Assembly (NCBI GenBank): GCA_004555535.1 | Contig: SFHU01000001.1 | Location: 10,678-74,677, forward strand | DNA from: Clostridiales bacterium | GTDB taxonomy: Bacteria; Bacillota; Clostridia; Christensenellales; Aristaeellaceae | DNA length: 64,000 nucleotides | Reading direction: 5' to 3' | Part shown: positions 5,822-64,000 of the stretch, in pieces | How the letters are laid out: each line of letters starts with the position of its first letter | How positions within the stretch are numbered: position 1 is the stretch's first letter | Translations under genes and position numbers: made by a program | Notes under the pieces: generated by a model | Database searches by the model: none | Told to the model about the DNA's origin: nothing | The model's input: the letters and a program-made list of their open reading frames with translations, nothing else

Positions 5822-5965
5822 GTCTTCAGAAAATCAACCGTCAGGTAACGCTTCGCTCCCTGACTGCTTCTCAGGAATGGCTTCGCCATGAAGGGAAACG
5901 TTGGGCTGCCGCCCAAACCTGCCCGGGGGACACGTCCCCCGGACTCCCTTCTTCGCTTCACGCGC
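5822..5965 (+). repeat. interspersed modular repeat, short form with degenerate core (between phnD and phnC)
   Basis: GTCTTCAG..CGTCAGG..GCTTCGC..CCTGACTGCTTCTCAGG (decayed core), then CGTTGGGCTGCCGCCCAAACC, GGGGGACACGTCCCCC and the tail CTCCCTTCTTCGCTTCACGCG. Confidence 0.7.
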
Positions 5966-6007
5966 TTTAAAGCGGATTCCAAATACCAAGCAAAGGATGT
6001 GTCCCCG

Positions 6008-6769
6008 TTGATCGAATTCAAGCATGTCTCCAAAACATATCCCAACGGCGTCAAGGGCCTCAAGGATGTGAGCCTCAAGTTTGAGCAGGGCGAGTTCGTC
6101 GCCATCATCGGCCTCTCCGGCGCGGGCAAGTCGACGCTCATCCGCACGATCAACCGCATGATCGACATCACCGAGGGCGAGCTGACCGTCGACGGCACCG
6201 ACGTCATGAAGCTCTCCGGCAAGGCTCTGCGCCGCTTCCGCCGCAAGATCGGCATGATCTTCCAGTCCTTCAACCTCGTGACCCGCGCCACCGCGCTCAA
6301 AAACGTGCTCACCTCGATGGTGCCGGATATGGGCTTTGTGCGCGTGCTGCTGGGCCTGTTCACCAAAGAGCAGAAGCTCTCCGCCCTCGCCGCGCTGGAC
6401 AAGGTCGGCATTCTCGACAAGGCGTATATCCGCTGCGACCAGCTCTCCGGTGGCCAGCAGCAGCGCGTCGCGCTCGCGCGTACGCTCAACCAGAACCCCT
6501 CCATCATCCTGGCGGACGAGCCCGTCGCCGCGCTCGACCCCGTGACGGCGCATCAGGTCATGGCCGACTTCAAGCGCATCAACGAGGAGATGGGCATCAC
6601 CATCCTCATCAACATCCACCACGTCGACCTGGCGCTGGGCTACGCGCAGCGCGTCGTCGGCATCCGCGCGGGCGAGATCGTCTACGACGGCCCGGCCAGC
6701 GAGGTCACGCAGGAGGTGCTCGACAGCATCTACAACGGCTCCGCCGTTCCGCAGGCCGGCGGCAACTGA
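6008..6769 (+). CDS. phnC: phosphonate ABC transporter ATP-binding protein
   Basis: IEFKHVSKTYPNGVKGLKDVSL..GLSGAGKSTL (Walker A), LSGGQQQRVALAR (signature), ILADEP (Walker B). TTG 6008 lies 10 nt after AAGGA; GTG 5999 is an alternative. Upstream part of track ORF 5888.. lies in a repeat. Confidence 0.85.
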   Translation: MIEFKHVSKTYPNGVKGLKDVSLKFEQGEFVAIIGLSGAGKSTLIRTINRMIDITEGELTVDGTDVMKLSGKALRRFRRKIGMIFQSFNLVTRATALKNVLTSMVPDMGFVRVLLGLFTKEQKLSALAALDKVGILDKAYIRCDQLSGGQQQRVALARTLNQNPSIILADEPVAALDPVTAHQVMADFKRINEEMGITILINIHHVDLALGYAQRVVGIRAGEIVYDGPASEVTQEVLDSIYNGSAVPQAGGN

Positions 6770-6780
6770 GGAGGCGCAGC

Positions 6781-7632
6781 ATGAAGAAAAACGCTTCCGC
6801 CGCTGCGCGCATGCCGCTGTTTGACCGCATCTTCAAGCCCGAAACGGTCACGCTCCCCAACGGGCACACCGTCCTGCGCCCGCGCTCGCGCACGCCGCTG
6901 ATCGCCGCCATCGTGATCTTCGCGCTGGCGCTCTCCGTCAAGGTCACGGGGTTTGATCTGACGCTCATCGTCAAGCGCGCCAGCCAGCTCACCAAGATCC
7001 TCGGGCAGATCTTTCAACCCGACGCCAGCTTCTTTGACAAGGTACTCCCGCCGCTGTTTGACACCATCAAGATGAGCATCCTCGGCTCGGTCGTCGGCTG
7101 CCTGCTCGCGCTGCCCTACGCCGTCGCCGCCTCCGCCAACATCAACCGCAGCAAGCCGCTGCTGGCCGCGCTGCGCTTTCTGCTCAACATCGTGCGCACG
7201 CTGCCCACGCTGGTCATCGCCAGCATCTGCGCGCTGGTCTTCGGTCTGGGCACGTTCGCCGGTACCGTCGCCATCGTCGTCTTCACCTTCGGCGTCGTCA
7301 CCAAGATGCTCTATGAGTCCATCGAGACGGTCAACATGGGCGCGTTTGAAGCGCTCGAATCCGCCGGGGCGAACAAGTTCCAGGCCTTCTGGAGCGCCGT
7401 GTTCCCGCAGGTGCTGCCGACCTATCTCTCCCATTGCCTGTACAGCTTTGAGATGAACGTGCGCGCCGCGTCGATTCTCGGCTACGTCGGCGCGGGCGGT
7501 TTGGGCATTCTGATCGACGAGCGCATCGGCTGGCGCGATTACAACGGTCTGGGCACGGTGCTGCTGACGCTGTTCGTCGCCGTGTTCGTGATCGAGAATC
7601 TGAGCCAGTTCCTGCGCAGCAAGCTCAGCTAA
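6781..7632 (+). CDS. phnE: phosphonate ABC transporter permease
   Basis: 283-aa polytopic protein after phnC (RBS GAGGAGG). Ends with the PhnE-like motif AASILGYVGAGGLGILI. Confidence 0.8.
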   Translation: MKKNASAAARMPLFDRIFKPETVTLPNGHTVLRPRSRTPLIAAIVIFALALSVKVTGFDLTLIVKRASQLTKILGQIFQPDASFFDKVLPPLFDTIKMSILGSVVGCLLALPYAVAASANINRSKPLLAALRFLLNIVRTLPTLVIASICALVFGLGTFAGTVAIVVFTFGVVTKMLYESIETVNMGAFEALESAGANKFQAFWSAVFPQVLPTYLSHCLYSFEMNVRAASILGYVGAGGLGILIDERIGWRDYNGLGTVLLTLFVAVFVIENLSQFLRSKLS

Positions 7633-8463: not shown

Positions 8464-8482
8464 CCGCAGAGCATCGTTTTCA

Positions 8483-8575
8483 GCCGCGAAGCGAAGGTGG
8501 GGTCCGGGGATGAAATCCCCGGTCAGGGGCCCGGGGGATGAAATCCCCCGGACGCATCCCGCGCCTTCGCTTTTT
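8483..8575 (-). repeat. repeat fragment: tail plus two GGGGATGAAATCCCC hairpins, no core
   Basis: GCCGCGAAGCGAAGG starts 20 nt after the phnE stop. Two tandem CCGGGGATGAAATCCCCGG hairpins follow, and an inverted CCTTCGC closes the fragment. Confidence 0.65.
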
Positions 8576-12133: not shown

Positions 12134-12135
12134 GC

Positions 12136-13566: not shown

Positions 13567-16278
13567 ATGCATGCATTCAAGCTCAAGAGAAGCATCGCGG
13601 CCATGCTCTGCGCGGCCATGCTTGGCTCCGCGGCAGCGCCCGCCGCGCTGGCGGAGACCGCGTCCACGCCGGACGAGCCGAAGAAGGAGAGGAGCGCCGA
13701 GGTCGAAAGCCCGAAGGCCTCCGTCTCCGTGAAGGAGGACAGCGTCACCGTCACCATCACCGGGGGCGACGCCACGCGCAAGATGGTGATCCTGCTGGGC
13801 GATGATTTGTTCTTCGAGGGCGTGACCGTCGGCGACACGCGGACGTTTACGTCGCTTGCCGCGGGCAGCTATGACCTGGAGGTCGACTATGTCGACCCCG
13901 TGCCCGGCATCACCCCGGTCCGCACGACCGTGACGGTTCCGGGCAAGAGCAGCGTGACCACGCCGCCCACCGCTGGCGAGACCACTCCGCCTACCAGTGG
14001 CGAGACCACCCCGCCTACCGCTGGCGAGACCACCCCGCCTACCAGTGGCGAGACCACCCCGCCTACCAGTGGCGAGACCACTCCGCCCACCGCTGGCGAG
14101 ACCACTCCTCCCACCAGTGGCGAGACCACTCCGCCCACCGCTGGCGAAACCACCCCGCCTACCAGTGGCGAGACCACTCCGCCCACCGCTGGCGAGACCA
14201 CCCCGCCCGCCGGTGGCGAGACCACCCCGCCCGCTGGCGGCGAAACCACCCCGCCTGCCGCTGGCGAGACCACCCCGCCCGCGCAGGAGCAGCCGGTCGT
14301 CATGGCCATGACCCGCAGCAGCAGAGCTGGTGAGAAGACGGGCGCCATCGAGGGCACGGTTTCCTTCGGCGGCGAAACCGACATGGTCGCCAAGCTCTAT
14401 GACGGAACCGGCGCGCAGATCGCCGAGCAGACGATCCCCGCGGGCGGCGACGGCAGCTTCGCCTTTACCAATCTGGGCGCGGATACCTACACCGTCGCCT
14501 TCCACTACTGGGGCAACAGCAGCCCCGTGCTCTCGCTGAAATACACCGTGAACGTCGCCGCGGCGGAGCAGCTTAGCGCGACCGCGACCGTCAGCACCGC
14601 GCGCATCGACGTGCAGGTCAGCAAGGCGAGCGCGCTGCCCGTGACCGTGACGCTCACGCTCGGCGGCAAGGAGGTCGCCGTGAAGCGCATCGAGGGCGGC
14701 GTCGGCGCCGTCAGCTTTGACAAGCTCGCCTCCGGCGACTACACCGTGTCGGTCGACTACGAGACCGCGCAGAGCGGCTGCGACCCGGTCGTCTTCACGT
14801 CGCTGAGCGTCCTTGCCGAGGTCGCCGATATCGCCATCTCCAAGGTGACCGCCGGGGAGAACCAGCTGACCGTCACCGGCACGGCCCAGCCGGGCGCGGA
14901 TGTCACGCTGACCACCGAGCCCGCGACAAATTCCACGATCGTGCGCGCGGACGCCAAGGGCCAGTTCACCGCGACGATCACCTGCGCCGCCGGTACCTAC
15001 ACCGCCGTTCACGCGCAGTATGGCGCGGACAGCGCGACAAAGGTCAGCAAGACCGGCAGCTTCACCGTCACCGCGCCGGCCACCAAGCCCACGCTCGCGA
15101 CCGACCCGATCACCACGAGCAGCCTGACCGTCATCGCCAGAACGGCGGCGGGCACGGTCGTGAACCTCAAGACGGGCGACTACGGCCAGACCGTCACCGC
15201 CGGCTCGGACGGCATGCTGCGCTTCACCCTGCCGCACACCTACGCCGCCGGCACGGTCGTCACCTTCACCGTCTACTACGGCAAGGACAACGCGCAGTCC
15301 TTCACGCAGACCGTCAAGGTCACGCATCCCGTCTCCTACTCGCTGCTCAAGCGCGGCACCGTGAGCGACGAGGTCTACGCGCTGACCGCGCGCCTTGCCG
15401 AGCTGGGCTATCCCATCAGCGCGACCCGCAGCTACACCGACAGCGTCGCCGCCGCCGTCCGCCTCTTCCAGAGCGCCAACGGTCTGGCCGTCGACGGCCT
15501 CGCCGGTCAGCTCACACAGACGGCCCTCTACTCGCTCAGCGCCGTGCGCTACGGCGGCGAGGGCGAATACCCGACCTTCGTGCGCGGCGACCGCGGCTAC
15601 GCGCTGATCTACACGCTCCAGCAGCGGCTCAAGGATCTGGGTTACTACACCATCCGCGTCGACGGCATCTTCGGCAGCGGCACGCAGCGCGCCGTGCGCG
15701 ACTTCCAATATGTCAACGGCCTGACGCCCACCGGCGTCGCCGACAGCACGACGCAGAAGCTGCTCTACTCCTCCGCCGCCAAGCCGGTCAGCGGCACGGT
15801 CAGCGGCAGCTATACGACGCTCTCCCGCTCGCCCTACTACAACGCGGCGGTCGTCACGCTGCAGCGCAGGCTCAAGGCGCTGGGCTATCTGACCAGCTCC
15901 GTGGACGGCTACTTCGGCACGAAGACCTACCGCGCCGTGTGCAACTTCCAGAGCCGCAACGGCCTGAGTGTCACGGGCATTGCCGACCCCACCACGCAGC
16001 AGGTGCTCTATTCCGCCGGCGCGAAGGCGGCCTCCGGCAGCTCCTCGTCCTCTACGACGGGCTACCGCCTGCTCTACTGGGGCTGCAAGGGCGACGCGGT
16101 CAAGCGCCTGCAGAGCGCGCTGCTCGCCGCCGGGTATTCGCAGGTGAAGGTCGCCGACGGCATCTACGGCCAGTGGACGTATGACGGCGTGCGCGCCTTC
16201 CAGAAGGACCACGGCCTGGCTGTGGACGGCATCGCCGGCAAGAACACGCAGAACGCCCTCTACGGCACCAGCTACTGA
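13567..16278 (+). CDS. large secreted cell-wall-associated protein: signal peptide, TTPPT(A/S)GE x13 linker, Ig/CarboxypepD_reg-like beta domains, four C-terminal PG_binding_1 domains
   Basis: 903 aa, RBS GGAGGG, signal MHAFKLKRSIAAMLCAAMLGSAAAPAALA. Four repeats of the type LQ..L..LGY....DG.FG..T..AV..FQ..NGL.V.G.A peptidoglycan-binding motif. Confidence 0.85.
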   Translation: MHAFKLKRSIAAMLCAAMLGSAAAPAALAETASTPDEPKKERSAEVESPKASVSVKEDSVTVTITGGDATRKMVILLGDDLFFEGVTVGDTRTFTSLAAGSYDLEVDYVDPVPGITPVRTTVTVPGKSSVTTPPTAGETTPPTSGETTPPTAGETTPPTSGETTPPTSGETTPPTAGETTPPTSGETTPPTAGETTPPTSGETTPPTAGETTPPAGGETTPPAGGETTPPAAGETTPPAQEQPVVMAMTRSSRAGEKTGAIEGTVSFGGETDMVAKLYDGTGAQIAEQTIPAGGDGSFAFTNLGADTYTVAFHYWGNSSPVLSLKYTVNVAAAEQLSATATVSTARIDVQVSKASALPVTVTLTLGGKEVAVKRIEGGVGAVSFDKLASGDYTVSVDYETAQSGCDPVVFTSLSVLAEVADIAISKVTAGENQLTVTGTAQPGADVTLTTEPATNSTIVRADAKGQFTATITCAAGTYTAVHAQYGADSATKVSKTGSFTVTAPATKPTLATDPITTSSLTVIARTAAGTVVNLKTGDYGQTVTAGSDGMLRFTLPHTYAAGTVVTFTVYYGKDNAQSFTQTVKVTHPVSYSLLKRGTVSDEVYALTARLAELGYPISATRSYTDSVAAAVRLFQSANGLAVDGLAGQLTQTALYSLSAVRYGGEGEYPTFVRGDRGYALIYTLQQRLKDLGYYTIRVDGIFGSGTQRAVRDFQYVNGLTPTGVADSTTQKLLYSSAAKPVSGTVSGSYTTLSRSPYYNAAVVTLQRRLKALGYLTSSVDGYFGTKTYRAVCNFQSRNGLSVTGIADPTTQQVLYSAGAKAASGSSSSSTTGYRLLYWGCKGDAVKRLQSALLAAGYSQVKVADGIYGQWTYDGVRAFQKDHGLAVDGIAGKNTQNALYGTSY
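13957..14280 (+). repeat. in-frame 24-bp tandem repeat, about 13.5 units (ETTPPT[A/S]G)
   Basis: Near-identical units ACCAC(T/C)CCGCC(T/C)ACC(A/G)(G/C)TGGCGAG alternate Ala and Ser variants. Confidence 0.95.
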
Positions 16279-17144: not shown

Positions 17145-17184
17145 GCCCGGCAGGTTTTTTTCGCAGAATGGAGAATGAGTCCAT

Positions 17185-17315
17185 GCGCGAAGCGAAGATG
17201 GGGTTTGGGGATGAAATCCCCAAGCAGGTTTGGGCGGCAGCCCTAACGTACTCCAATAGAATAAAAAATGCAGTTTCAGAGCAGGCTGCGCAGCAGCCTA
17301 CGATTGAAACGGGTT
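17185..17315 (-). repeat. interspersed modular repeat, short form (core 17270..17315)
   Basis: GCGCGAAGCGAAGATGGGG, TTTGGGGATGAAATCCCCAA, GGTTTGGGCGGCAGCCCTAACG, an AT-rich spacer, then GCAGTTTCAGAGCAGGCTGCGCAGCAGCCTACGATTGAAACGGGTT. Confidence 0.85.
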
Positions 17316-17394
17316 GGATCCTCCAAAAAGGAATTGAATAGAAGACGAATCACAGGAGAAACAGGCGGGCTTCCCGCCGGAAGGAGACATCAGG

Positions 17395-19444: not shown

Positions 19445-19446
<2 letters not shown>
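19405..19446 (+). terminator. rho-independent terminator after the GH42 gene
   Basis: GGGAGTCCGG..CCGGACTCCC followed by TTCTTTTCTTT. The stem resembles a hairpin module of the repeat family. Confidence 0.6.
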
Positions 19447-20226
<780 letters not shown>

Positions 20227-20230
<4 letters not shown>

Positions 20231-22183: not shown

Positions 22184-22204
22184 GCTGCATTTCTCCTTGC
22201 ATGT

Positions 22205-22455: not shown

Positions 22456-22470
22456 TCTGATTATAGCATG

Positions 22471-22504: not shown

Positions 22505-22520
22505 CTCAATGACTGCTTTG

Positions 22521-22590
22521 GACTACGTTGGGCTGCCGCCCAAACCCGCTTGAGGATTTCATCCCCAAACCCCATCATCGCTTCGCGCGC
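22521..22590 (+). repeat. repeat fragment: core 3' remnant, H2 hairpin and tail; the tail overlaps a CDS 3' end
   Basis: GACTACGTTGGGCTGCCGCCCAAACCC...GAGGATTTCATCCCC...CATCGCTTCGCGCGC. Confidence 0.7.
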
Positions 22591-24116
22591 AGGAAAGAAG
22601 GCCAGCGCGCTTTGAAGGTGATATGCGGCTCGAGCAGCGCCGCCGCGCACAGCAGCAGCATTTCAAACTGGAAGAAGTAGCGCGCGCGCGTCTCCCACAT
22701 GCTCAGAAACAGGAACGCGCCCAGCAGCGCGATCATGACCGCCGCCGCGCGGGTGTCCTTCCTGCGCACGGCCTGGGCGCACGCCGCGCAGGCGAGCAGC
22801 AGCTGCGCGCAGAAGAGCGCCGTCGTCAGGTGGTAATACGCGCCATAGAGCGCGCCGCCCTCGAAGATGACCTGCTTGACCGGGTTGTCCGGCTCGTGCG
22901 CGTCCGCCTCGATGATCTCGTTGAGGCCGAAGGCGCCGTTGCCGAAGGTCGAGAGATTCTTGCGCGAGAGCAGACTCAGCAGCCGCGAGGGATAGCGCAC
23001 ATAGTAGATTCGGTCGATGACCTGCTCAAGCAGCGCCGCGTCGCGCGCCTGGGGATCCTCAAAGGAGGTCGAGAAGATCAGCCAGCCGCCGTCGCCGTAC
23101 TGCCCGTAGCCCTCGTCCTCATGGATGGGCAGACCCATCGCGATGTAGTGCAGCTTGGGCAACTCGTTTTGCTCGAGCTGCTGCGCGCTCAGGTGGCGCG
23201 CCGTTTCGGCGTCCATCCACGCGCCGCCCGCGGCGAACACCCCGGCGAGCGCGAGCGCGCAGGCAGCCGTCAGCCTTGGCCGCTTTTGCAGCAGCAGCGC
23301 GATCAGGCAGGCGATGGCCGCGATGATGGAGGTGAAGCGCAGCTGCGCGCCCACAAACGACGACGCCGCGAACGCGAGCGCCCAGAGCGCGCGGCCTCTG
23401 CGCGAAGCCGCCTCCCGCGCGCGCACGGCGCACAGCACGATCACAGGCGGGAACGCGAGCGAAAACGCGTCGGTATACAGCTCCGAGGACGCATACAGGA
23501 ACGGCAGGCAGGAGGCAAAGAGCAGCAGCACGCGCAATTCCGCGCGCACCCCGCCCAGACACCGGCACAGCCGCGCGCTGGAAAGCAGCCCCAGCGAAAA
23601 GAGCAGCGAGGCGACGAGCACCAACGGCAAAAAGCTGTCCGTCACGCCGAAGAGGCGGCAAACGCGCAGGATCGCCGCAAACGCGTAGACGAGACCGAGG
23701 TTATGCGGATAGCGCGAAAAATAGACGACGGAGCGCTCGTTTTGGCCAAACGTGCCCTGCTCGACGATCAGCCGCGCCGCCGTCACGCATTGCTCCAGGT
23801 CGGTCTTGGGCGTGTAGCGCAGCGCGCAGGCAAGCCCCAGCTGCACGGCCAGATAAAAAAGCGCGGCCAGCGCGAGGCATGCGCGCTCCCGGCGGGCAAA
23901 CGCCGCCTCCAGACGCCCCGCCGCCCGCAGCGCCAGCAGCAGCGCGAGCAGGCCAAGCGCCGTCAGCAGCGCCAGCAGGGGCCGGTTTCTGCCATAGAGC
24001 GGCCAGGGAGAGAGCAGCGTGTTGAGCGCCGTGAACAGAAAACAGGGAATCATCAGCGCCATGCCCACAAGCAGCAGCGCGCGCATCCATCCGCCGCGCG
24101 GGCGGGAAAGCCTCAT
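22575..24116 (-). CDS. GT-C fold membrane glycosyltransferase (ArnT/PMT_2, GT39/83-like)
   Basis: 513 aa with more than 10 TM helices and YFSRYPHNLG in the early loop. ATGA overlap with the upstream paralog. The last 4 codons (RAKR) are encoded by the repeat tail. Confidence 0.65.
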   Translation of the reverse strand: MRLSRPRGGWMRALLLVGMALMIPCFLFTALNTLLSPWPLYGRNRPLLALLTALGLLALLLALRAAGRLEAAFARRERACLALAALFYLAVQLGLACALRYTPKTDLEQCVTAARLIVEQGTFGQNERSVVYFSRYPHNLGLVYAFAAILRVCRLFGVTDSFLPLVLVASLLFSLGLLSSARLCRCLGGVRAELRVLLLFASCLPFLYASSELYTDAFSLAFPPVIVLCAVRAREAASRRGRALWALAFAASSFVGAQLRFTSIIAAIACLIALLLQKRPRLTAACALALAGVFAAGGAWMDAETARHLSAQQLEQNELPKLHYIAMGLPIHEDEGYGQYGDGGWLIFSTSFEDPQARDAALLEQVIDRIYYVRYPSRLLSLLSRKNLSTFGNGAFGLNEIIEADAHEPDNPVKQVIFEGGALYGAYYHLTTALFCAQLLLACAACAQAVRRKDTRAAAVMIALLGAFLFLSMWETRARYFFQFEMLLLCAAALLEPHITFKARWPSFLRAKR

Positions 24117-25591: not shown

Positions 25592-25656
25592 GGTTGGCTC
25601 CTTTCCTCTGCACAGGGCGGAAACTGCGAACATTCCGGTAAACATGCTTTTACGCA

Positions 25657-25792
25657 CGCGAAGCGAAGAGGGGAGTCTGAGGGACGATGTCCCACAGACA
25701 GGGTGCGGGGCGGCAGCCCCGCCGTATCCCATCAAATCTCCAAATCGCAGTCTCAGAGCAGGCTGCGCAGCAGCTTACGATTGAGACGGGTT
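25657..25792 (-). repeat. interspersed modular repeat, short form (core 25747..25792)
   Basis: CGCGAAGCGAAGAGGGGAGTC..GGGACGATGTCCC..GCGGGGCGGCAGCCCCGC..GCAGTCTCAGAGCAGGCTGCGCAGCAGCTTACGATTGAGACGGGTT. Confidence 0.85.
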
Positions 25793-25827
25793 GAATGCGC
25801 CCGGCGTGCTTCAGGCGCAAACCCTGC

Positions 25828-31420: not shown

Positions 31421-31761
31421 CAGGGATACAGCCCCGGGTCCAGGGCCACAGCCCTGGTCGTTTCAAGGGGGTTATAGGGAGTCAAGAGGGATCTAAGGGG
31501 GGAAATCGAAATCCCCCCTGATCCCTCTTGCCCAGCGGAGCGCGTCTCCCCAGACGCAGAAAAGTGGATTTTTAAAAAATCCATAAGCTTTTGCGGAGCA
31601 GCTTCTTGCAACCGTTACGCATAAAACCCGTCTCAATCGTAGGCTGCTTCGCAGCCTGCTCTGAGACTACGTTTTTCTGGATTTGAGGGAGAACGATTGG
31701 GGCGCCGCCCCAAACCCCGCAAGGGACTTCGCCCCTTGACCCCATGTTCGCTTCGCGGCGG
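31421..31761 (+). repeat. interspersed modular repeat, long form (core 31626..31673)
   Basis: Left arm AGCCCCGGGTCCAGGGCCACAGCCCTGGTCGTTTCAAGGGGG, AGAGGGATC..GATCCCTCT, TGCCCAGCGGAGCGCGTCTCC, an AT-rich stretch, the core, TTGGGGCGCCGCCCCAA, CAAGGGACTTCGCCCCTTG and the tail TTCGCTTCGCGGCGG. Confidence 0.85.
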
Positions 31762-31767
31762 TTTCAA

Positions 31768-34023: not shown

Positions 34024-34105
34024 GGAAGAATTCAACCTTTCTTGCCGGCGGGGCCGGCCCTCGCTCCGGAGGCGGATTCCTGTCAGTCAAAAAACGCTTG
34101 TCAAA

Positions 34106-36984: not shown

Positions 36985-37452
36985 ATGAGCATCGAAAGAG
37001 CGCGGGCCCACCTGCAAAAGCACGGGCTCGCGGACAGAATCATCGAATTGGACGTCTCCAGCGCGACGGTCGCCCTGGCGGCGCAGGCGCTGAACTGCGA
37101 GAGCAACCGCATTGCCAAGACGCTCTCCTTCTCGCGCGGCGAGGGCGCGATCCTCATCCTCGCGGCGGGCGACGCGCGCATCAACAACGCGAAATTCAAG
37201 GCCCGCTTCGGCATGAAGGCGCACATGCTGCCCCACGACGCCGTCGAGCCGCTGATCGGCCACGCGGTCGGCGGGGTCTGCCCGTTCGGCATCAATCCCG
37301 GCGTGCCGGTGTATCTGGATGAATCGCTGCGCGCGTTTGACATCGTCTATCCCGCGGCGGGCACGGCCGCCAGCGCCGTGCGCCTGAGCCTCGAGGAGCT
37401 CGAGCGCGCCAGCGAGGCCGAAGGCTGGGTCGATGTCTGCAAGGCGCTTTGA
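36985..37452 (+). CDS. YbaK/EbsC-family aminoacyl-tRNA deacylase
   Basis: 155 aa; IAKTL..., GHAVGGVCPFG motif. Confidence 0.8.
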   Translation: MSIERARAHLQKHGLADRIIELDVSSATVALAAQALNCESNRIAKTLSFSRGEGAILILAAGDARINNAKFKARFGMKAHMLPHDAVEPLIGHAVGGVCPFGINPGVPVYLDESLRAFDIVYPAAGTAASAVRLSLEELERASEAEGWVDVCKAL

Positions 37453-37800
37453 CCGCCGCGAAGCGAAGAAGGGTCAAGGGGCTTAGCCCCTTGCGGGGTC
37501 TGGGGCAGCGCCCCAGGCAGGCTTGGGCGGCAGCCCAACGTTCCCTAATCAATCATTCAAGAAAACGTAGTCTCAGAGCAGGCTGCAAAGCAGCCTACGA
37601 TTGAGACGGGTTATCCATGCCAGGGCGGCTGGAAGCTTCTCAGCTGAAACGATCCGGGATTTCAGTAAAACCTCATTTGCGTCTGGGAAGACGCGCTCCG
37701 CGGGCCAGAGGGCGGAGGAGGGATCTCGACCTCCCCCCTCCACCCTCTGGACTCCCCCACCCCCTCGAAACGACCAGGGCTGCGGCCCTGGACCCGGGGC
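37453..37800 (-). repeat. interspersed modular repeat, long form (core 37564..37612)
   Basis: Begins 1 nt after the ybaK stop with CCGCCGCGAAGCGAAGAAGGGTCAAGGGGCTTAGCCCCTTG and ends with CCAGGGCTGCGGCCCTGGACCCGGGGC. Module order is colinear with 31421..31761 in reverse complement. Confidence 0.85.
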
Positions 37801-39696: not shown

Positions 39697-39793
39697 GCTC
39701 AGATGCTCCCTCATTCCCGGGGGAAGGTTCTTCCCCTGATCTTGCGGCGTGACGCCGGTAAATTGGGTCTGTATGCCCGCTTGGCAGGCTCAA

Positions 39794-40028
39794 ACCCGTC
39801 TCAATCGTAGGCCGCTTCGCGGCCTGCTCTGAGACTACGTTCTCTTTTTCTATTTTTGGGGGATACGATAGGGCTGCCGCCCTATGACCTGCCTGAGGGA
39901 TTTCAGGCCGGGGAACTCGCATGGTCGCGCTGCGGCGCTTCCTGCGATTCCCGACGCTTCGTCTGCCTCTTTCCGCCATTGGCGGCGGCAGACTTCGGTC
40001 CCCTCAGACTCCCTTCTTCGCTTCGCGC
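39794..40028 (+). repeat. interspersed modular repeat, short form with an approx. 100-bp insertion in the H3 hairpin (core 39794..39842)
   Basis: Core with GGCCGC/GCGGCC stem, then GATAGGGCTGCCGCCCTATGACC, then CTGAGGGATTTCA[insert]CCCCTCAGACTCCCTTCTTCGCTTCGCG. Compare 59631..59767, which lacks the insert. Confidence 0.85.
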
Positions 40029-40048
40029 TGTTTGAAGCGGGCGCTGCG

Positions 40049-44217: not shown

Positions 44218-44233
44218 AAAGGCGGCAAACCGC

Positions 44234-44288
44234 CGCGAAGCGAAGAAGGGTCAAGGGGCTAAGCCCCTTGACCCTATTTCGCTTCGCG
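44234..44288. repeat. tail-to-tail palindromic repeat fragment
   Basis: CGCGAAGCGAAGAAGGGTCAAGGGGCT-A-AGCCCCTTGACCCTATTTCGCTTCGCG, a near-perfect 55-nt palindrome between convergent pmbA and thrE-type genes. Confidence 0.8.
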
Positions 44289-44756
44289 CGGGTTAAAGCG
44301 GCTTCGCGGGGTAATGCTCCCCCGTCGCATGCCCAGGGCGCGGAAGACCACCGATGTGACCGCCGCGCCGACGGCAATCGCGCCGACGATCTGCACCGCC
44401 TGAAGTCCATAGGCCGCAGCGGCCGCGCCCTGATCCTCCACCAGCGCGAGCATCGCGCGATAGAAACTGTAGCCGGGCACGAGCGGCACGAGCGCGCTGA
44501 GCAGGAAGATCGTCGTGGGCGTGCGCATCACGCGCGCCGCAATCTCGCAGATGACAGCGATGACGACCGTCGAGAGGAAATAGCTGAAAATCAGGCTCTG
44601 GCCCATGCCGCGGCTCAGCAGCAGATAGAGCACGTACCCCAGCACACCGATGAGCGACGAGGGCAGCAGCGTCCGCCTCGGCGCGTTGAGCAGGCAGGCC
44701 AGGCCGATCGTGCCGCCAAACGCGCCGGCAGCCCCGACGAGCAGCTCACGAATCAC
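44274..44756 (-). CDS. threonine/serine exporter family protein, C-terminal-type half (DUF3815-like)
   Basis: GTG 44756 overlaps the upstream stop (GTGA). 160 aa, 4-5 TM. The last codons NPREAK are encoded by the repeat tail. Confidence 0.7.
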   Translation of the reverse strand: MIRELLVGAAGAFGGTIGLACLLNAPRRTLLPSSLIGVLGYVLYLLLSRGMGQSLIFSYFLSTVVIAVICEIAARVMRTPTTIFLLSALVPLVPGYSFYRAMLALVEDQGAAAAAYGLQAVQIVGAIAVGAAVTSVVFRALGMRRGSITPRSRFNPREAK

Positions 44757-46503: not shown

Positions 46504-46552
46504 GGGAAGCATCCTCCTTGATTGATGTCTGTAATCACATATCGTGTTTTGC

Positions 46553-50372: not shown

Positions 50373-50376
50373 ATCA

Positions 50377-50525
50377 CCGCGCGAAGCGAAAAAGGGTCAA
50401 GGGGCTAAGCCCCTTGCGGGGTCTGGGGCGGCGCCCCAGGCGGGTTTCAGGGCAGCAGCCCTGATCATTCCAAGAAAACGCAGTCTCAGAGCAGGCCGCC
50501 GTGCGGCCTACGATTGAGACGGGTT
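50377..50525 (-). repeat. interspersed modular repeat, short form (core 50477..50525), between gerAB and gerAC
   Basis: CGCGCGAAGCGAAAAAGGGTCAAGGGGCTAAGCCCCTTG, GGGGCGGCGCCCC, CAGGGCAGCAGCCCTG, spacer, then AACGCAGTCTCAGAGCAGGCCGCCGTGCGGCCTACGATTGAGACGGGTT. Confidence 0.85.
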
Positions 50526-50628
50526 CGAGTCCGCAAAGCATAAATTCAAGCAAAACAAAAACCCGGTTGTCCATGAGCCTGACAGTGGATTCCAACCAGA
50601 TTGTAAAGACAAGAGGTCAAACCAGCCC

Positions 50629-51822
50629 ATGAAAAGACCATCCCTTTTTCTCATCCTGCTGTTCCTGCCGCTGCTGCTTGGCGGCTGCTCCGGCGGGCAG
50701 GAGATCGAGAGCTGTCTGTTCGTGATCGCGATGGCGGTCGACCCGGCGCAGGACGGCAACCTGACCGTGACGGTCAAGGCGCTCTCCGGCTCGCAGGACG
50801 CCGCGACCGGCGGCGCGCAGAGCGAGGAGGACGCGGGCGGCGAGGAAAAGACGCCATCCTCCGGACAGAGCGAGGACGCCGAGCAGACCGAGCCGGGCTA
50901 TGTCGTGCTCAGCGCGACCGCGCCCAGCTGCCTGCGCGCGCTCAACCTGCTCAGCGCGACGACCCCGCGCACCGTCAACCTCTCCCAGCTCCAGGAGATA
51001 GTCCTGAGCGAGACGCTGGCCAGAACGGAGGCGACGCTCTCCATCCTCCGGGAGATCCACGCGATGTACCGGGCCAACGGCGAGGCCATCGTCGTCGTCA
51101 CGCCGGACGACGCGGGCGACTTCATCCGCCGCCAGCACGCGCTGCTGGGCGTGCGCCTGTCCAAATATTTGAAGGTGCTCTTTGAGAACTTCTCCCGGAT
51201 CGACACCATCCCGCCAAACGCGCAGCTCTCCGCCGTCATCGCCGCGATGGAATCCGGCGTCTGCGACGCGGCGGCCGTCTACGCCGCCGGGAACGACTTC
51301 TCCGCCACGCTCGTCCTCCCCGGCGCGGAGGAGACGGACCGCCTGCCCGGCCACCTGCCGCGCACCTCGCCCGCGCAGAACGAATACCTCGGCAGCGCGC
51401 TGTTCTCCGGCCCCAGGATGACCGGCACGCTCACCGGCAGCGAGACGTCGCTGCTCTGCCTGCTGATGGGCCGCGCGCACTCGCGCACCATCGTCGTGGG
51501 CGGCGCGCAGTACCGCGTGAACGTCAACGCCAGCGCGCGGCGGACGATCGCGCAGGACGGCACGCTTTGCGCGCGCGTGCGCATCAGCCTGTCGCTTCTG
51601 GCAGGCGGGGAGGCGCAGACGCAGGGCGAGCTGGCCGCGGACATCGAGCAGCGCGCCGTCAACCTCATGCAGAAGCTGCAGACGCTTGCCTGCGACGCGC
51701 TGGGCTTCGGGTGCATCGCCGTGCGCGGGAGCCTTTCCATTCCCGCCTGGGAAAGGCGGAACTGGCCTGCGGAGTACGCGGGCGCGGCGGTGCGCGCGAG
51801 CGTGTTTTTGAGAATTGTCTAA
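50629..51822 (+). CDS. Ger(x)C family germination lipoprotein
   Basis: Lipobox LLLGGCSGGQEIE followed by FVIAMAVD, the typical GerAC N-terminus. Confidence 0.8.
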   Translation: MKRPSLFLILLFLPLLLGGCSGGQEIESCLFVIAMAVDPAQDGNLTVTVKALSGSQDAATGGAQSEEDAGGEEKTPSSGQSEDAEQTEPGYVVLSATAPSCLRALNLLSATTPRTVNLSQLQEIVLSETLARTEATLSILREIHAMYRANGEAIVVVTPDDAGDFIRRQHALLGVRLSKYLKVLFENFSRIDTIPPNAQLSAVIAAMESGVCDAAAVYAAGNDFSATLVLPGAEETDRLPGHLPRTSPAQNEYLGSALFSGPRMTGTLTGSETSLLCLLMGRAHSRTIVVGGAQYRVNVNASARRTIAQDGTLCARVRISLSLLAGGEAQTQGELAADIEQRAVNLMQKLQTLACDALGFGCIAVRGSLSIPAWERRNWPAEYAGAAVRASVFLRIV

Positions 51823-57652: not shown

Positions 57653-57673
57653 TCATGTACAGAAAAACGTCCT

Positions 57674-57808
57674 CCGCCGCGAAGCGAACCGGGGGCAAGA
57701 GGCTCAGCCCCTTGGCCCGTCACAGGACGGCAGCCCTATCGTATCCCCATCATTCCAAAAACGTAGACTCAGAGCAGGCCGCTTTGCGGCCTACGATTGA
57801 GACGGGTT
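57674..57808 (-). repeat. interspersed modular repeat, short form (core 57760..57808)
   Basis: CCGCCGCGAAGCGAACCGGGGGCAAGAGGCTCAGCCCCTTGGCC..GGACGGCAGCCCTATCG..AACGTAGACTCAGAGCAGGCCGCTTTGCGGCCTACGATTGAGACGGGTT. Confidence 0.85.
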
Positions 57809-57957
57809 ATCTCCGCAACCCCCCACAGAAAACTGACTCCTCTTTTTTCACGCGTTCTTAACAGGAATTTGACGCCGTCTCCCGAAATATAATGAGACTG
57901 ATTTCACATCCCATGCGCCGCTTCGCGCAGAATGCTCAGACTCAGGGGGATTCATCC

Positions 57958-58360: not shown

Positions 58361-58662
58361 TTCAATGCTTATGAGACTGTCAGGCTAGGAATCCAGACAT
58401 TTCAAGCAAAACCTTAGAATTTGCGCCCGAAGGGTTCCAAAGGGCGATCAAAAAGCCCTTTGGCCGGGCGTTGGGGCAGAGCCCCAAGCTCAGAACGGCC
58501 AATGATTCTTAGATCATTTGCTTTTTGAAATGTTCAGGATTACTCTGTAAGTCCTTCTGCAAAGCTCCGGTCTCGGGCACAAAGCAACTGGACAACCGTC
58601 ACTTCGTCGGAAATGCCACCGGCATCATGCCGGTTTAGCCTGACATCCCCTTTGCGGAGTCA

Positions 58663-58822
58663 ACCCGTCTCAATCGTAGACCGCTGCGCGGTCTGCTCTG
58701 AGACTACGTTCTTTCTGATCGCTTCGCGATAGGGAACGTTGGGCTGCTGCCCAAACCCGCCCGGGGCTCTGCCCCGGACCCTGCAAGGGGCTAAGCCCCT
58801 TGACCCTAATTCGCTTCGCGCG
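58663..58822 (+). repeat. interspersed modular repeat, short form (core 58663..58710)
   Basis: Core with GACCGC/GCGGTC stem, then GATCGCTTCGCGAT, CGTTGGGCTGCTGCCCAAACC, CCCGGGGCTCTGCCCCGG, CAAGGGGCTAAGCCCCTTG and the tail AATTCGCTTCGCGCG. Confidence 0.85.
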
Positions 58823-58850
58823 CAGAAAAGCCGCCTTCAGAATTTCCCTC

Positions 58851-59495: not shown

Positions 59496-59630
59496 TGAAC
59501 CGATGCCTCCGCGCATTATTTTTTTCTGCCGTGTGAAAGGAATGCCAGGGTCTAAGCGAGGTTGACCGGCAGGCGCATTTCCTCCGGGAGCGTGGTGAGT
59601 TGGGGATGGATGCCTGCTTTGCAGCGCAGA

Positions 59631-59767
59631 ACCCGTCTCAATCGTAGACCGCTTCGTGTTCTGCTCTGAGACTACGTTTTTTATTGATTATGAAGGACAC
59701 GATAGGGCTGCCGCCCTATGACCTGCCTGAGGGATTTCATCCCTCAGACTCCCTTCTTCGCTTCGCG
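59631..59767 (+). repeat. interspersed modular repeat, short form (core 59631..59678, 3' stem arm decayed)
   Basis: ACCCGTCTCAATCGTAGACCGCTTCGTGTTCTGCTCTGAGACTACGTT, then GATAGGGCTGCCGCCCTATGACC and CTGAGGGATTTCATCCCTCAGACTCCCTTCTTCGCTTCGCG. Confidence 0.85.
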
Positions 59768-59788
59768 CCTGATGATGCAGCTGTGCAT

Positions 59789-60908: not shown

Positions 60909-60952
60909 ACGATGTTCCTTTGGTTGTCGGGTTTGGATGTTTTCATGAAGTA

Positions 60953-61096
60953 AGCCCGTCTCAATCGTAGGCTGCTGCGCAGCCTGCTCTGAGACTGTTT
61001 TTTTGATCGCTTCGCGATGGGGAACGCTGGGGGATTTCATCCCCCATACCCCTAGCCTGGGGACATTGTCCCCAGACCCCTTCTTTGCTTCGCGCG
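60953..61096 (+). repeat. interspersed modular repeat, short form (core 60953..60997)
   Basis: AGCCCGTCTCAATCGTAGGCTGCTGCGCAGCCTGCTCTGAGACTG, then GATCGCTTCGCGAT, TGGGGGATTTCATCCCCCA, TGGGGACATTGTCCCCA and the tail CCCCTTCTTTGCTTCGCGCGCG. Confidence 0.85.
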
Positions 61097-61107
61097 CGAA
61101 AAAGCGG

Positions 61108-63021
61108 CTATTGCGTCACCGCATAAATCGTCACATCCGCGTTCTCATACACGACCGGATACGCCGCCTCAAGCGCGGCCATATCGACGTCAAAATCCGC
61201 GCGCTCATAGTCGCTGACGTAGATGTAATCGACGCCGTAGGTCCTGAGCACATCGGCGTTGTTTCCAGGGTCCTCGAGGAAGCGCCGGCAATCCTCCGCC
61301 TGCTGCGCATAGCTCAGCCCGTGGAAGAACACGTACAGGTCGCTGCCGCAGATGATCTGCCGCCCCGCCAGCGAGGCGACGGGATTGATGTGCTGCTGCC
61401 CGGTGAGGAAGACGGCGTCCCTGTCGGTGTTCTCCTCGACCCACTTGCCCGCGTCGACCGCCGTTCTGGAGAAGAGCTGATACCCGGAGACCGCCTCGCG
61501 CGCGATCGAGAGCGCGCCGGAGAGCACGCTCACGCCGATGAACAGCGCGCACAGGAGCCTTCTCCCGCCCAGCCCGGCCAGCCGCTGCATGAGCACGGAG
61601 CCGTAGTCCGCCGCGAGGATCGCGCCGAACATGTACCAGATATAGAAGAGCTTGTTGTTGTCGTACTCATTGCGCTGGAAGAGGATCGTCTCCGCGACGG
61701 CGAAGATCGCCGTCATGCCCAGCACGAGGTCGAGCTGGCCGCGCCGCCTCGCGTTCAGGCAGGCGCAGACGATCAGGATGAACGGCAGGCCGACGTTCTT
61801 CACCCAGAAGAAGAACCAGCCGTCGATCAGCCCCCTGCCGCCGCTGTTGTTGACCCAGTTGAACTGAAAGCGCAGCACGCCGCCCTCCACGGTCTGGCGG
61901 ATGGCGCCGGAGAGCACCTGCGGCAGCGCCAGCGCGAGCACAATCGCGAGGTACACGCCCGCGCGCTTGAGCACGCCGCGCCGGTCGTTTTTGTCGACGA
62001 TCAGTCGCCCGAGCAGATAGCCGCCTGAGAACAGCCCCAGCGCGAGGAACGTATGCGTATGCACGAGCGGCAGCGCGCCCGCCCAGACGGCGAGGATCAC
62101 CGTCTGGCGCATGGAGCGCTCCCGCTGCGAGCTGATGAGCAGCATCAGCGCCGGGAGCACCATCGCCCAGCCGCCCAGCAGCGAGCGCTGGGGGATCAGC
62201 AGATCGGCGATGACGTTGGAAAAGCGCAGGTTGAGCTCCGGCTGGTTGGCCGGCGTCCTGTAATAGCCGGTGAAGATCTCGCGGACCCTGGCAAAGCCGT
62301 CCTTGAACGCCATGTCAAAGTCATAGAGGAACCCGAGGCCGCCGTTGAAGAAGAACAGCAGCGCCGCGACGGCGACGGCCTTGTGCCGCCCGCCGAGAAT
62401 CTGCTGCGCCAGGAGCATGTAGCCCGCGTAGGTCAGCGCCATGAGCAGCGTGCCCGGGACGATCAGCGCCCAGTTGAGCGGCAGGCCGAGCAGCAGAAAG
62501 CTCGTGCTCAGCGAATCCGCCAGGTAGGGATAGGCCATCGGCGTCCCGGCGAGCAGGCTGTAGGACGGCGGGAACGCGGCGTCCTTCATCGAGGTCACGA
62601 ACGCCAGATGCATGCACAGGTCGCCATAGGTCGACTGGCCGCACCAGAGCGAGCCGTCCGGCGCGGGCATCAGGATATGCGTGTACTGCAAATAGGCCGA
62701 GAGCACGGTCAGCGGGATGCCGACCGCGGCCATGACGGCGAGCTGCCGCCTGTCCTGCGGCTGCATCCTTGCGGCCGCGCGCCGCTCGCGCAGCGGATAG
62801 CAGAGCGCCGTCAGCGCGAGCAGCGCCACAATGGCGAGCATGTGCGCCTCAATGGTGAAGTCCAGCAGCCGGGCGCACAGCGCCGGCAGCTGCATCATCA
62901 GCAGCACGCCCAGCGCCAGGCCCATGTAGATGCGCACGAGCGGGCGCTTGAGCGGCAGCAGCAGACGGACGATGAGCAAGCCGCCCATCAGGAACAGAAG
63001 GGTATACAGGATTGCCGCCAT
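61108..63021 (-). CDS. large polytopic membrane protein, possible GT-C-type glycosyltransferase
   Basis: About 637 aa and more than 12 TM. ATG 63021 (RBS GGTGAGG) preferred over GTG 63033. GT-C assignment is by architecture only. Confidence 0.5.
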   Translation of the reverse strand: MAAILYTLLFLMGGLLIVRLLLPLKRPLVRIYMGLALGVLLMMQLPALCARLLDFTIEAHMLAIVALLALTALCYPLRERRAAARMQPQDRRQLAVMAAVGIPLTVLSAYLQYTHILMPAPDGSLWCGQSTYGDLCMHLAFVTSMKDAAFPPSYSLLAGTPMAYPYLADSLSTSFLLLGLPLNWALIVPGTLLMALTYAGYMLLAQQILGGRHKAVAVAALLFFFNGGLGFLYDFDMAFKDGFARVREIFTGYYRTPANQPELNLRFSNVIADLLIPQRSLLGGWAMVLPALMLLISSQRERSMRQTVILAVWAGALPLVHTHTFLALGLFSGGYLLGRLIVDKNDRRGVLKRAGVYLAIVLALALPQVLSGAIRQTVEGGVLRFQFNWVNNSGGRGLIDGWFFFWVKNVGLPFILIVCACLNARRRGQLDLVLGMTAIFAVAETILFQRNEYDNNKLFYIWYMFGAILAADYGSVLMQRLAGLGGRRLLCALFIGVSVLSGALSIAREAVSGYQLFSRTAVDAGKWVEENTDRDAVFLTGQQHINPVASLAGRQIICGSDLYVFFHGLSYAQQAEDCRRFLEDPGNNADVLRTYGVDYIYVSDYERADFDVDMAALEAAYPVVYENADVTIYAVTQ

Positions 63022-63029
63022 GCCTTGCC

Positions 63030-63617
63030 TCACCTTGCCCGTTCGCTCTCGATGACCTGAAACGCCGCCTGGCGTCTGCGCCTGTGCGCACCCGGCGCCT
63101 CCTGCGGCGCGGCGGAGGCCTTCTCGGCGGGGCGGACGCGGCGCGTGTCGCCCTGCGCGTTCTCCTGCGTCTCGCGCACGATGCGCGGCTTCTTCTGCGG
63201 CCTTTCGGGCAGCAGATCGGGATCGGGCTCCTCCTGCGCGGGCGCTTCCTGCGCCGTCTCCTGCGCCACATCGGCCTTGATGGCCGCCAGGTCGAGCGCC
63301 GCCTGCCTGCGCCGGCTGCGCTCATCCGTCTCGCCGCGGATCTGGCGCGCGGCCGCCTCCGTACAGATGGCCTGACCGGAGAGCGCGGAATAGCGGCTCT
63401 GCCCGGCGGTCAGGATGGCCGCGTCCAGCAGCACGATGACCAGCACCGTCACCGGCACGGCATAGAGCGTCCGCAGCCCGAGCAGCACCGCCGCGACGCA
63501 TAGCGCCAGCGTCACGACGACGGCCACGGCCACATAGACTCTGCGCATCCGCGCCGCACTGCGGCGAAGCTCGCGCGCCGTCTTGTTGGTCAGGCGGATG
63601 ACGTCCCTGCTTTGCAT
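63030..63617 (-). CDS. hypothetical membrane protein (2 TM, charged C-terminal tail)
   Basis: Trimmed to MQSRDVIRL (RBS AGAGAGG). Operonic with the downstream membrane protein. Confidence 0.5.
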   Translation of the reverse strand: MQSRDVIRLTNKTARELRRSAARMRRVYVAVAVVVTLALCVAAVLLGLRTLYAVPVTVLVIVLLDAAILTAGQSRYSALSGQAICTEAAARQIRGETDERSRRRQAALDLAAIKADVAQETAQEAPAQEEPDPDLLPERPQKKPRIVRETQENAQGDTRRVRPAEKASAAPQEAPGAHRRRRQAAFQVIESERAR

Positions 63618-63735
63618 GGTGATCGACCTCTCTTCATGGTGGTTGGAATGGGATGATTGAACCTTATTTTTGCAACAGAATTCTCTGCACAACTGCGCTT
63701 ATCGGAGACTTCTCCTGTTTTCAAAGCCCAGAGAC

Positions 63736-64000
63736 AGCCCCGGGTCCAGGGCCACAGCCCTGGTCGTTTCGAGGGGGTAATGGGAGGTGCAGGAGGGTCT
63801 TAAGGGGGAGAATCGAAACGCCCCCTGACCCTCCTGCCCTGGGGTTTGGGGAATGGAATTCCCCAACGTTTCCCCGGCAGCTTTCAAAGCAGCATTCCTT
63901 ATAGAAATTCGCGTTTAAATTCTTGCTTTGCAGATCAAACCCGTCTCAATCGTAGGCTGCTTCACATCCTGCTGTGAGACTACATTTTCTTTGATCTTAT
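63736..64000 (+). repeat. interspersed modular repeat, long form truncated by the window end (core 63939..63985)
   Basis: The left arm AGCCCCGGGTCCAGGGCCACAGCCCTGGTCGTTTCGAGGGGG is nearly identical to 31430..31470. Next come GGAGGGTC..GACCCTCC, GGGGAATGGAATTCCCC, an AT-rich stretch, and a core with a decayed 3' arm. Confidence 0.8.

Follow-up and report, generated by a model that had tools for sequence, protein, structure and literature searches.

Small interspersed repeats influence how operons are built, how stable mRNAs are, and how genomes rearrange, and they also interrupt the assembly of metagenomes. Here we describe a hairpin-rich repeat that recurs in the intergenic regions of a 64-kb stretch of DNA (65% G+C), referred to below as the window, from a Clostridiales bacterium (GenBank assembly GCA_004555535.1, contig SFHU01000001.1, positions 10,678 to 74,677). 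Among the described systems closest to it are the bacterial interspersed mosaic elements (BIMEs), the loops of which are also targeted by mobile DNA, namely, IS1397 and ISKpn1, and the mycobacterial interspersed repetitive units (MIRUs), short repeats in operons of Mycobacterium that are oriented to transcription and overlap the upstream stop codon. Unlike the present repeat, MIRUs are tandem-repeat units with small open reading frames (ORFs) and not hairpin arrays. Repetitive extragenic palindromic (REP) sequences are defined in a 2013 survey of GTAG/CGTC repeats, in which the host taxa listed include Proteobacteria, Cyanobacteria, Chloroflexi, and the PVC (Planctomycetes-Verrucomicrobia-Chlamydiae) group and neither Firmicutes nor Clostridia are mentioned anywhere (PMC3733652). 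In Streptococcus pneumoniae, the BOX element is built as boxA-boxB(n)-boxC and has terminal inverted repeats (TIRs) that resemble those of ISSpn2 and base-pair together, whereas SPRITE is a Rho-independent-terminator-like element located near gene 3' ends (PMC3049150).

The repeat of the window is a previously undescribed family of this familiar class of small noncoding bacterial repeats and not a new kind of system. It is probably a nonautonomous, interspersed mosaic family of the REP/BIME- or BOX-like kind, putatively copied in trans. The original prediction, made from the window alone, had described a modular element with a 48-nt core; the orientation of the copies relative to transcription and the nesting of a second repeat within them are features that it did not contain.

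Anatomy and distribution of the repeat

The anatomy of the repeat was derived from an alignment of 102 full copies, taken both from the window and from genomes related to it, read on the strand termed F. The unit is about 130 to 190 nt long and contains a core, which is an imperfect hairpin and has flanks that do not vary (…CCCGTCTCAATCGTAG…CTGCTCTGAGAC…). The core has a basal stem of 6 bp (GTCTCA/TGAGAC) that is opened by CGTC, a 3x2 internal loop, an upper stem of 9 bp starting with GTA/TGC, in which a T·G wobble is constant, and a loop of 3 nt. A near-invariant CGTAG stands directly before the upper stem or enters it (CGTAG|GCTGC…), and a T-run follows on the F strand 4 nt after the core hairpin. 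Beyond an A/T-rich spacer there are one (11 copies), two (67 copies), or three (23 copies) further hairpins, all of them perfect palindromes, followed by the tail. A further helix, joining the T-run and a GGGRWACG motif before the first of these hairpins, H2, is a possibility raised by predicted folds, in a spacer that aligns poorly. In total, about 45 positions are invariant or near-invariant across unrelated loci and species.

The order of core, A/T spacer, H2, one or two more GC hairpins, and tail had been foreseen, and it was present in all 10 complete window copies. The extent of the unit had been set too short at both ends. A conserved extension of 12 to 25 nt precedes the core (…CTGCTTTGCGRATCAA|ACCCGTCTCA, the junction reading …|ACCCG), and another of 12 to 16 nt follows the tail (…TTCGCTTCGCG|CGGTNNAAAGCR), where it is able to close a small GCTTC…GAAGC hairpin at the 3' end. 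The 5' extension was considered as a promoter and discarded, as inspection revealed no -10 element at the right spacing. Within the narrower limits given originally, the 10 complete window copies measure 130 to 158 nt, apart from one of 234 nt (39794-40027), the length of which is due to a separate repeat of about 96 nt nested in its hairpin H3.

Searches of differing sensitivity agree on the abundance of the element. At up to three mismatches, a pattern search with the 48-nt core gave 3 matches in the window, whereas blastn with the same query gave 11, at 87 to 100% identity. A pattern made of the flanks only (CCGTCTCAATCGTA-N15-TGCTCTGAGAC) matched 8 times and never in shuffled sequences; the core pattern was likewise absent from 100 shuffles, which sets 11 cores per 64 kb against 0 expected. 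All 11 core positions that had been named were recovered by blastn and pattern matches, those of the minus-strand cores 17270 and 25747 lying about 3 nt off the true core start. An nhmmer profile made from 99 short-form copies located full or partial copies in 15 intergenic regions of the window, in line with the "at least 15" put forward before; beyond the 11 cores, it added 5849-5973, 8475-8559, 22515-22597, and a palindromic mini-form at 44228-44299. With the nested insert counted, the copies cover 2,184 nt or 3.4% of the window, so that the earlier figures of 2.7 kb and 4% were slight overestimates; of the noncoding DNA, estimated at 7.9 kb, they make up about 26%. Of the 33 gaps of at least 60 nt, 14 are occupied by a copy, and the density is about one copy per 6 kb.

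The repeat is not confined to the window but spread genome-wide in its carriers. The flank pattern was found in at least 108 stretches among species-representative genomes, and the carriers comprise at least 15 uncultured Clostridia species known as metagenome-assembled genomes (MAGs), which include Candidatus Ventricola spp., entries named "Clostridia/Clostridiales/Eubacteriales bacterium", and one "Oscillibacter sp."; they originate from chicken, water deer, and other guts. The related loci, which carry L numbers below, were fetched by an exact match to the core flanks, with the N15 upper stem and any secondary copies left unconstrained. A covariance model built from the 11 window cores gave 131 hits when run over Ventricola-like loci (735 kb) and none over 474 kb of unrelated metagenome DNA. 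The window shares 93 to 97% identity with contigs of the assemblies JALFVL and SFFC and about 80% with CAMENN, and a contig search by neighboring proteins returned, from a strain of 98% identity, only one contig of 1.5 kb, in which the arrangement is the same. The metagenome pattern TTCGCTTCGCG N8-38 TGTACAT, aimed at young copies that might end in GTACAT, yielded chance matches only, with a core in 0 of 80 loci, and serves as a negative control.

The element matched no named family, as had been anticipated, and the comparison with Rfam identified it as no described repeat or noncoding RNA. At the gathering threshold, the Rfam scan of the window called only a cobalamin riboswitch elsewhere, and in E-value mode four copies returned noise only. 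Viral contigs and plasmid records contained no match to the repeat, nor did a literature search by sequence string.

Hairpin conservation, orientation, and turnover

In the core hairpin of the 131 aligned hits of the covariance model, 99.3% of 1,904 cells were paired, as compared to 24 to 45% in slid registers. Double-sided changes affected 8 of the 15 core pairs and 97 cells, which was attained by 0 of 500 shuffles; G·U intermediates occupied 2 cells only, and compensation proceeds almost entirely by strict Watson-Crick double changes. At least 12 variants of the upper stem were found (GGCTGC/GCAGCC, GGCCGC/GCGGCC, GACCGC/GCGGTC, GGATGC/GCATCC, GGAGGC/GCCTCC, and others), several of which are common to different genomes. 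H2 and H3 contained 31 mismatches among 1,634 stem pairs, with G·T and A·C being equally frequent (5 each), and neither strand therefore carries an RNA-type signal. Both strands fold below shuffled controls (z of -1.6 to -4.4), and strand asymmetry, sought in G·U versus A·C mismatches and in folding energies, was not clearly present. The polarity of a G-run in the 5' arm of the hairpins was also tried as a strand clue and was uninformative because palindromes read alike on both strands. The structure is clearly selected, all-Watson-Crick, and strand-symmetric, as expected of DNA hairpins and not of RNA helices.

A clear link also emerges between the orientation of a copy and the transcription of its neighbors. 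Of 77 full copies, 66 have a tail-side neighbor the transcription of which runs into the tail (p=1e-10). Both neighbors lie on the R strand in 39 of these 77 copies, are convergent in 27, lie both on the F strand in 9, and are divergent in 2; when only same-strand flanks are considered, the ratio is 39 versus 9 (p=1.5e-5). In the window, where Pfam supports the genes, 9 of 10 copies obey the same tail-side rule. The median distance from the tail to the stop codon is 21 to 22 nt, and given the tail extension, the extended end of the element therefore nearly touches the stop. Plus and minus copies are interleaved along the window and follow the local gene direction, with the GC skew showing no switch, so that orientation tracks transcription and not replication. 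Copies are located inside the housekeeping operons parA/parB and gerAB/gerAC, and genes for rRNA methyltransferases are also among the syntenic housekeeping genes that flank them. In about one-third of the copies, a canonical terminator-like hairpin stands just beyond the core, resulting in the layout of stop codon, element (reverse strand), and terminator. In 39 of 48 same-strand contexts, the T-run of the element is on the nontranscribed strand, and the core was not called by a terminator scan; the notion of the core as an intrinsic terminator was rejected on orientation. The bias fits selection against the transcription-stopping orientation or selection for stem-loops of the reverse strand in the 3' untranslated region (UTR).

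Copies are gained and lost between genomes. The cleanest case is a unit of 163 nt (57656-57817) that is present in the window and in L059 and absent at the orthologous sites of L067 and L063, in which the two flanks are contiguous; a terminator hairpin directly precedes its insertion point. The basal stem of the core starts about 16 nt from the 5' end of this unit, as defined by that one indel. In agreement with the original prediction, this clean indel (n=1) showed no target-site duplication (TSD), and the unit ends showed no convincing TIR, their inverted similarity (CTGCTTT…AAAGCAG) being weak, 7 nt long, and poorly conserved. The hexamer GTACAT is located at or near the outer 3' end of three copies (window 57656-57661, L018 ~411-420, and L073 ~843-848), which are the two cleanest indel copies and one further copy; after other tails it is rare, with 4 cases among 154. 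Copies of recent origin may in fact end with this hexamer, a pattern noticed post hoc with n=3.

Other gains lie between genes that, in the genome compared, have overlapping or almost adjoining ends, as is the case for L003 versus L030 and for L015/L018 versus L039. Between the ybaK-like gene and an M55 peptidase gene, the window has about 460 nt, holding the copy at 37447-37623, versus 22 nt in L035. The 3' extension of this copy gives the last two codons and the stop (37444-37452) of the ybaK-like ORF (36985-37452), the C terminus of which reads …KAL* in the window versus …TK* in the element-free L035 (~7525-7545). The repeat has therefore remodeled the C terminus of the ybaK-like protein.

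The extent of site sharing was recorded by flank identity. At a flank identity of at least 90%, 36 sites were shared and 2 absent; at 75 to 85%, few sites could be evaluated, and these were mostly unshared. Identical hairpin variants were encountered at numerous unrelated loci as well as in several genomes, a recurrence that argues for copying and module shuffling and not for independent evolution. Orthologous copies were compared with third codon positions in five cases. In three of them, the copies were the more conserved (0.96 to 0.97 versus 0.87 to 0.89; Fisher p=6e-5, 2e-3, and 4e-8), whereas the two others lacked excess conservation; conservation above the synonymous level in three of five comparisons suggests selection or homogenization.

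Individual copies and associated sequences

The partial copies of the window differ in what they retain. At 5849..5973 (+; nhmmer E=3.9e-16, profile positions 45-168), a diverged core remnant starting at ~5823 is followed by H2, H3, and tail, and the decayed copy that had been suspected near 5823 is thus genuine. The copy at 8475..8559 (-; nhmmer) consists of two GC hairpins and a tail without a core, and that at 22515..22597 (+; profile) of a core 3' remnant, H2, H3, and tail. The latter adjoins, at a distance of 54 nt, the cobalamin riboswitch (RF00174, 50.2 bits; 22244-22461, -), which is located upstream of a Peripla_BP_2/FecCD/ABC_tran operon (19445-22237, -). The palindromic mini-form at 44228..44299 (no strand assigned; profile) has an inverted tail, one hairpin, and a tail (CGCGAAGCGAAGAAGGG-hairpin-CCCTATTTCGCTTCGCG) and is the sole example of this arrangement in 794 kb. 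At the window end, a core with the beginning of the spacer is truncated (63918..64000, +; blastn and profile).

Three full copies were located by blastn and the profile. The copy at 17181..17335 (-), flanked by a metallo-beta-lactamase-fold gene (+) and a GH42 gene (+) according to Pfam, carries the basal stem variant GTTTCA…TGAAAC. That at 25646..25804 (-) is the only window copy with a transcribed F strand, its core being 34 nt past the stop of a pseudouridine synthase gene, and that at 50373..50547 (-), with three hairpins, lies between gerAB-like (49290-50372, +) and gerAC (50629-51822, +). Pattern matches and the profile identified the copies at 31609..31764 (+), the tail of which is 10 nt from the stop of a GH65 gene (31768-34035, -; Pfam), at 37447..37623 (-), which has three hairpins, and at 39778..40038 (+), located between parA and parB and containing the nested repeat, termed Insert A, in the loop of H3. 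The GH65 gene and the adjacent copy (31626-34035) are missing as a block from the otherwise syntenic L035 (4201-4464). The remaining full copies were found with the profile. One of them, at 57656..57818 (-), corresponds to the 163-nt presence/absence unit and was also defined by syntenic comparison. The copy at 58649..58830 (+) has three hairpins and an extra CGCTTCGCG in its spacer and stands where L053 and L067 have a terminator, which makes it a replacement. At 59611..59777 (+), the orthologue in L067/L063 has a different insert of about 96 nt, Insert B, in its spacer. The tail of the copy at 60940..61105 (+) is 14 nt from the stop of the ORF at 61108-63033 (-), and this copy shares 99.3% identity with its L067 orthologue, as compared to 87% at third codon positions.

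Insert A (39906..40001, +) is a separate repeat of about 96 nt with a predicted three-way-junction fold that was recognized by its recurrence in the related loci, where about 45 copies exist (e.g., L093 5038-5133). Nearly all of its sites are in H2/H3 loops or just before the main-element tail, and it occurs in both orientations, being reversed in L032 (~7365-7463) and L075 (~308-405). The ends of Insert A pair with each other, so that the composite would stay a hairpin topped by a three-way junction. A candidate 3-nt YCC duplication possibly exists at its junctions. Insert B (…ACTCTGTAAGTCCTTCTGCAAAGCTCC…CCGGCATCATGCCGG…) is another module of about 96 nt, located in the window at ~58570-58662, just upstream of the 58663 core; in L067 (~5270-5365) and L063 (~1510-1600), the counterpart of the 59631 copy carries it within the A/T spacer. 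The hairpins of the main element are themselves insertion targets.

Further repeats are present in the window. A third one, of about 130 nt and containing GCGGAGCGCGTCTYCCCAGACGC (31410-31538, 63716-63844, and ~37620-37760), accompanies three elements, in each case beyond the core and ahead of the next gene start, and had no Rfam match. Three tandem GC-rich units of 75 nt (46546-46769) lie between a KduI-like gene (46791-47627, -) and an SDR gene (~45700-46470, -). The 903-amino-acid ORF at 13567-16278, which has four PG_binding_1 domains and a 198-nt internal duplication (15599-16039), contains a 24-nt tandem repeat of about 19 units, encoding an 8-residue repeat (13881-14336).

Origin of the repeat and its relation to known systems

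The mechanism proposed for a nonautonomous repeat copied in trans starts from its mosaic build, in which an imperfect core hairpin with a putative REP-like CGTAG tag at the foot of the upper stem is combined with the A/T-rich spacer, with perfect GC palindromes that are exchangeable and number one to three, and with the conserved tail and its small closing hairpin. The hairpins would matter as DNA, either extruded or single-stranded, and would be recognized by a protein, and copying would take place in trans, with the gene for the enzyme located at another site of the genome. Because there is neither a TIR nor a TSD, an HUH/Y1-type enzyme of the REP-associated tyrosine transposase (RAYT) or IS200/IS605 class is the leading candidate. 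New copies would survive mainly just past stop codons, with the mRNA bearing the reverse complement. Copies placed this way would keep the core hairpin and T-run off the transcript, and operons would therefore remain uninterrupted and the element co-transcribed. The resulting array of stem-loops in the 3' UTR or between cistrons may protect the upstream mRNA, by analogy with the REPs of E. coli, and the hairpin loops would be the landing sites for Insert A.

Several points weigh against copying in trans. No mobilizing enzyme came to light: the Pfam scan of about 55 window ORFs, in accord with the earlier statement on transposases and integrases, showed ordinary chromosomal genes without a domain of either kind, and the ORFs between inverted neighboring copies, as judged by eye, contain no transposase and are ordinary as well (e.g., RNase HII-like, spore-maturation-like, and aminopeptidase-like). 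No multicopy genes were found near copies in 794 kb and no RAYT in the window or in about 730 kb around the 131 cores. A tblastn search with RAYT (YafM) and IS200 TnpA queries returned only one unlinked fragment in L086. This truncated IS200/IS605-type TnpA fragment (4124-4201; LAHTKWMCKYHIVFTPKYRRK…, with a stop after about 45 codons) occupies an AT-rich patch where the contig ends; the closest copy of the repeat is 2 kb away and has no ends in common with it. The ends of the repeat are defined by only one fully clean indel; the less clean gains have extra nonconserved sequence at both ends, and some are replacements, so that such ragged gains could mean recombination or template switching instead of transposition. 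The invariance of the core flanks outside the window is partly by construction, because the loci were fetched on exact flanks, and the gene calls in these loci come from a heuristic based on third-codon-position G+C. The conservation data further suggest that a host function, possibly at the RNA level, is inseparable from selfish spread.

Such a function is central to the first rival explanation, in which the repeat is a cis-acting structured RNA element of 3' UTRs or intercistronic regions, serving, for example, as an mRNA stabilizer or processing site; selection on the transcript would maintain it, and its copy number would grow by duplication from time to time. The strong orientation to transcription, the tails that abut stop codons, the conservation of some orthologous copies above synonymous sites, and the folding of both strands below shuffles are all compatible with this. 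However, 2 G·U cells against 97 double changes and strand-symmetric mismatches are atypical of RNA helices, the positions are not kept between genomes at about 80% identity, Insert A enters the loops either way without apparent penalty, and Rfam holds no match. We therefore consider an RNA element a possible but rather unlikely origin. Less likely again is an ordinary MITE (miniature inverted-repeat transposable element) that stems from an insertion sequence (IS) with a DDE transposase and of which the short TIRs and target duplications have decayed. The repeat is less than 200 nt long, noncoding, and highly folded, its extended ends have the CTGCTTT…AAAGCAG similarity, and there is the one palindromic tail-hairpin-tail mini-form; yet the clean indel is free of a TSD, the 7-nt similarity is poorly conserved in a strongly asymmetric element, and neither an IS with matching ends nor a multicopy gene was present in 794 kb.

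The repeat could also be immobile, in that intrinsic terminators or similar signals are alike by constraint or have spread only by homologous recombination between intergenic regions. The T-run after the core on the F strand, the canonical terminators adjoining about one-third of the copies, and the replacements with ragged ends among the gains point in this direction. This reading is nevertheless improbable, since the T-run is mostly on the nontranscribed strand, the terminator scan passes over the core, about 45 near-invariant positions over unrelated loci and species are beyond convergence, and a terminator within the parAB and gerA operons would do harm. The distance of about 21 nt between stop codon and tail, the conserved irregularities of the imperfect hairpin, and the joint absence of the GH65 gene and its element (31626-34035) from L035 recall an integron-like cassette array, in which each element would be the attC-like site of the gene terminating right in front of it. 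This was rejected on gene context and is very improbable indeed: the flanks are syntenic housekeeping genes on both strands (parAB, gerA, and rRNA methyltransferases), single elements are gained without a gene, and the window ORFs scanned include no integrase.

A more far-reaching version of the mobile repeat is a tentative idea to which we give a low probability. According to this, the family would be the product of an undescribed Clostridial mobility system that targets hairpin DNA, with a REP-like core that an enzyme other than a classical RAYT recognizes as a DNA hairpin, insertion that is linked to transcription or the proximity of stop codons, hairpin loops that are specific landing pads of Insert A, and a resulting "hairpin-in-hairpin" growth by self-nesting. 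Both the orientation linked to transcription and the nesting of an insert specifically in loops offer ways of testing the mechanism. The family opens no new field by itself; it is a marker of its clade, and its invariant core is a target for finding the enzyme that spreads it.

Returning to the repeat copied in trans, the resemblance to the REP/BIME sequences of Enterobacteria and Pseudomonas is manifold. Both are extragenic, of high copy number, and made of GC-rich imperfect palindromes, and both form mosaics with other motifs and occur past the ends of genes and within operons; the present repeat, like REPs, would be co-transcribed. The core upper stem, with 9 bp, a 3-nt loop, and compensatory changes, falls under the short (20-40 nt) palindromes by which REPs are defined; GTAG is at the foot of this stem (CGTAG|GCTGC…) and CGTC at the basal stem, the role of either as a cleavage tag being putative, and as in REPs, the stems covary while the tag is fixed. 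In contrast to REPs, the cores are single and do not form the inverted pairs of REPINs or BIMEs, inverted neighbors being 250 to 1,600 nt apart and flanking ordinary genes; the unit of 130 to 190 nt is strongly asymmetric (core, hairpins, and tail), and the RAYT of the REPIN-RAYT system was not found in the window or the roughly 730 kb surrounding the cores.

With BOX, the repeat shares a fixed module order with a variable number of middle modules, an analogy of architecture only, and it is likewise mostly <200 nt, highly folded, transcribed intergenic Firmicute DNA that encodes no transposase (PMC3049150). Its GC-rich row of independent hairpins and the lack of a convincing TIR set it apart from the description of BOX. 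With SPRITE, the repeat has in common a long hairpin ahead of a T-rich tract as well as the enrichment near gene 3' ends (PMC3049150), but its T-run is mostly on the nontranscribed strand, the hairpin has an internal loop and is 4 nt from the T-run, and a terminator scan does not call it. The palindrome-associated transposable elements (PATEs) of IS200/IS605 appear similar, as far as the ends of the present repeat are defined by its one clean indel, in having no TIR or TSD and an imperfect hairpin near one end and a small one at the other, and their insertion is likewise oriented; they differ in that the orientation of the present repeat follows transcription and not replication, that no conserved target tetranucleotide is definable (n=1-2), and that no TnpA with matching ends was found. 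Like MIRUs, the repeat is present inside operons, is oriented to transcription, and overlaps an upstream stop (37447-37623 copy). The lack of TIR and TSD thus separates it from DDE-type MITEs and argues against a BOX element, and an orientation untied to replication separates it from IS200/IS605 PATEs. Since it lacks defining features of each named family, the repeat is assigned to their general kind and to none of them in particular, and it extends the REP-like GTAG-tagged hairpin repeats, which have been cataloged mainly in Proteobacteria and a few other phyla, to the Firmicutes.

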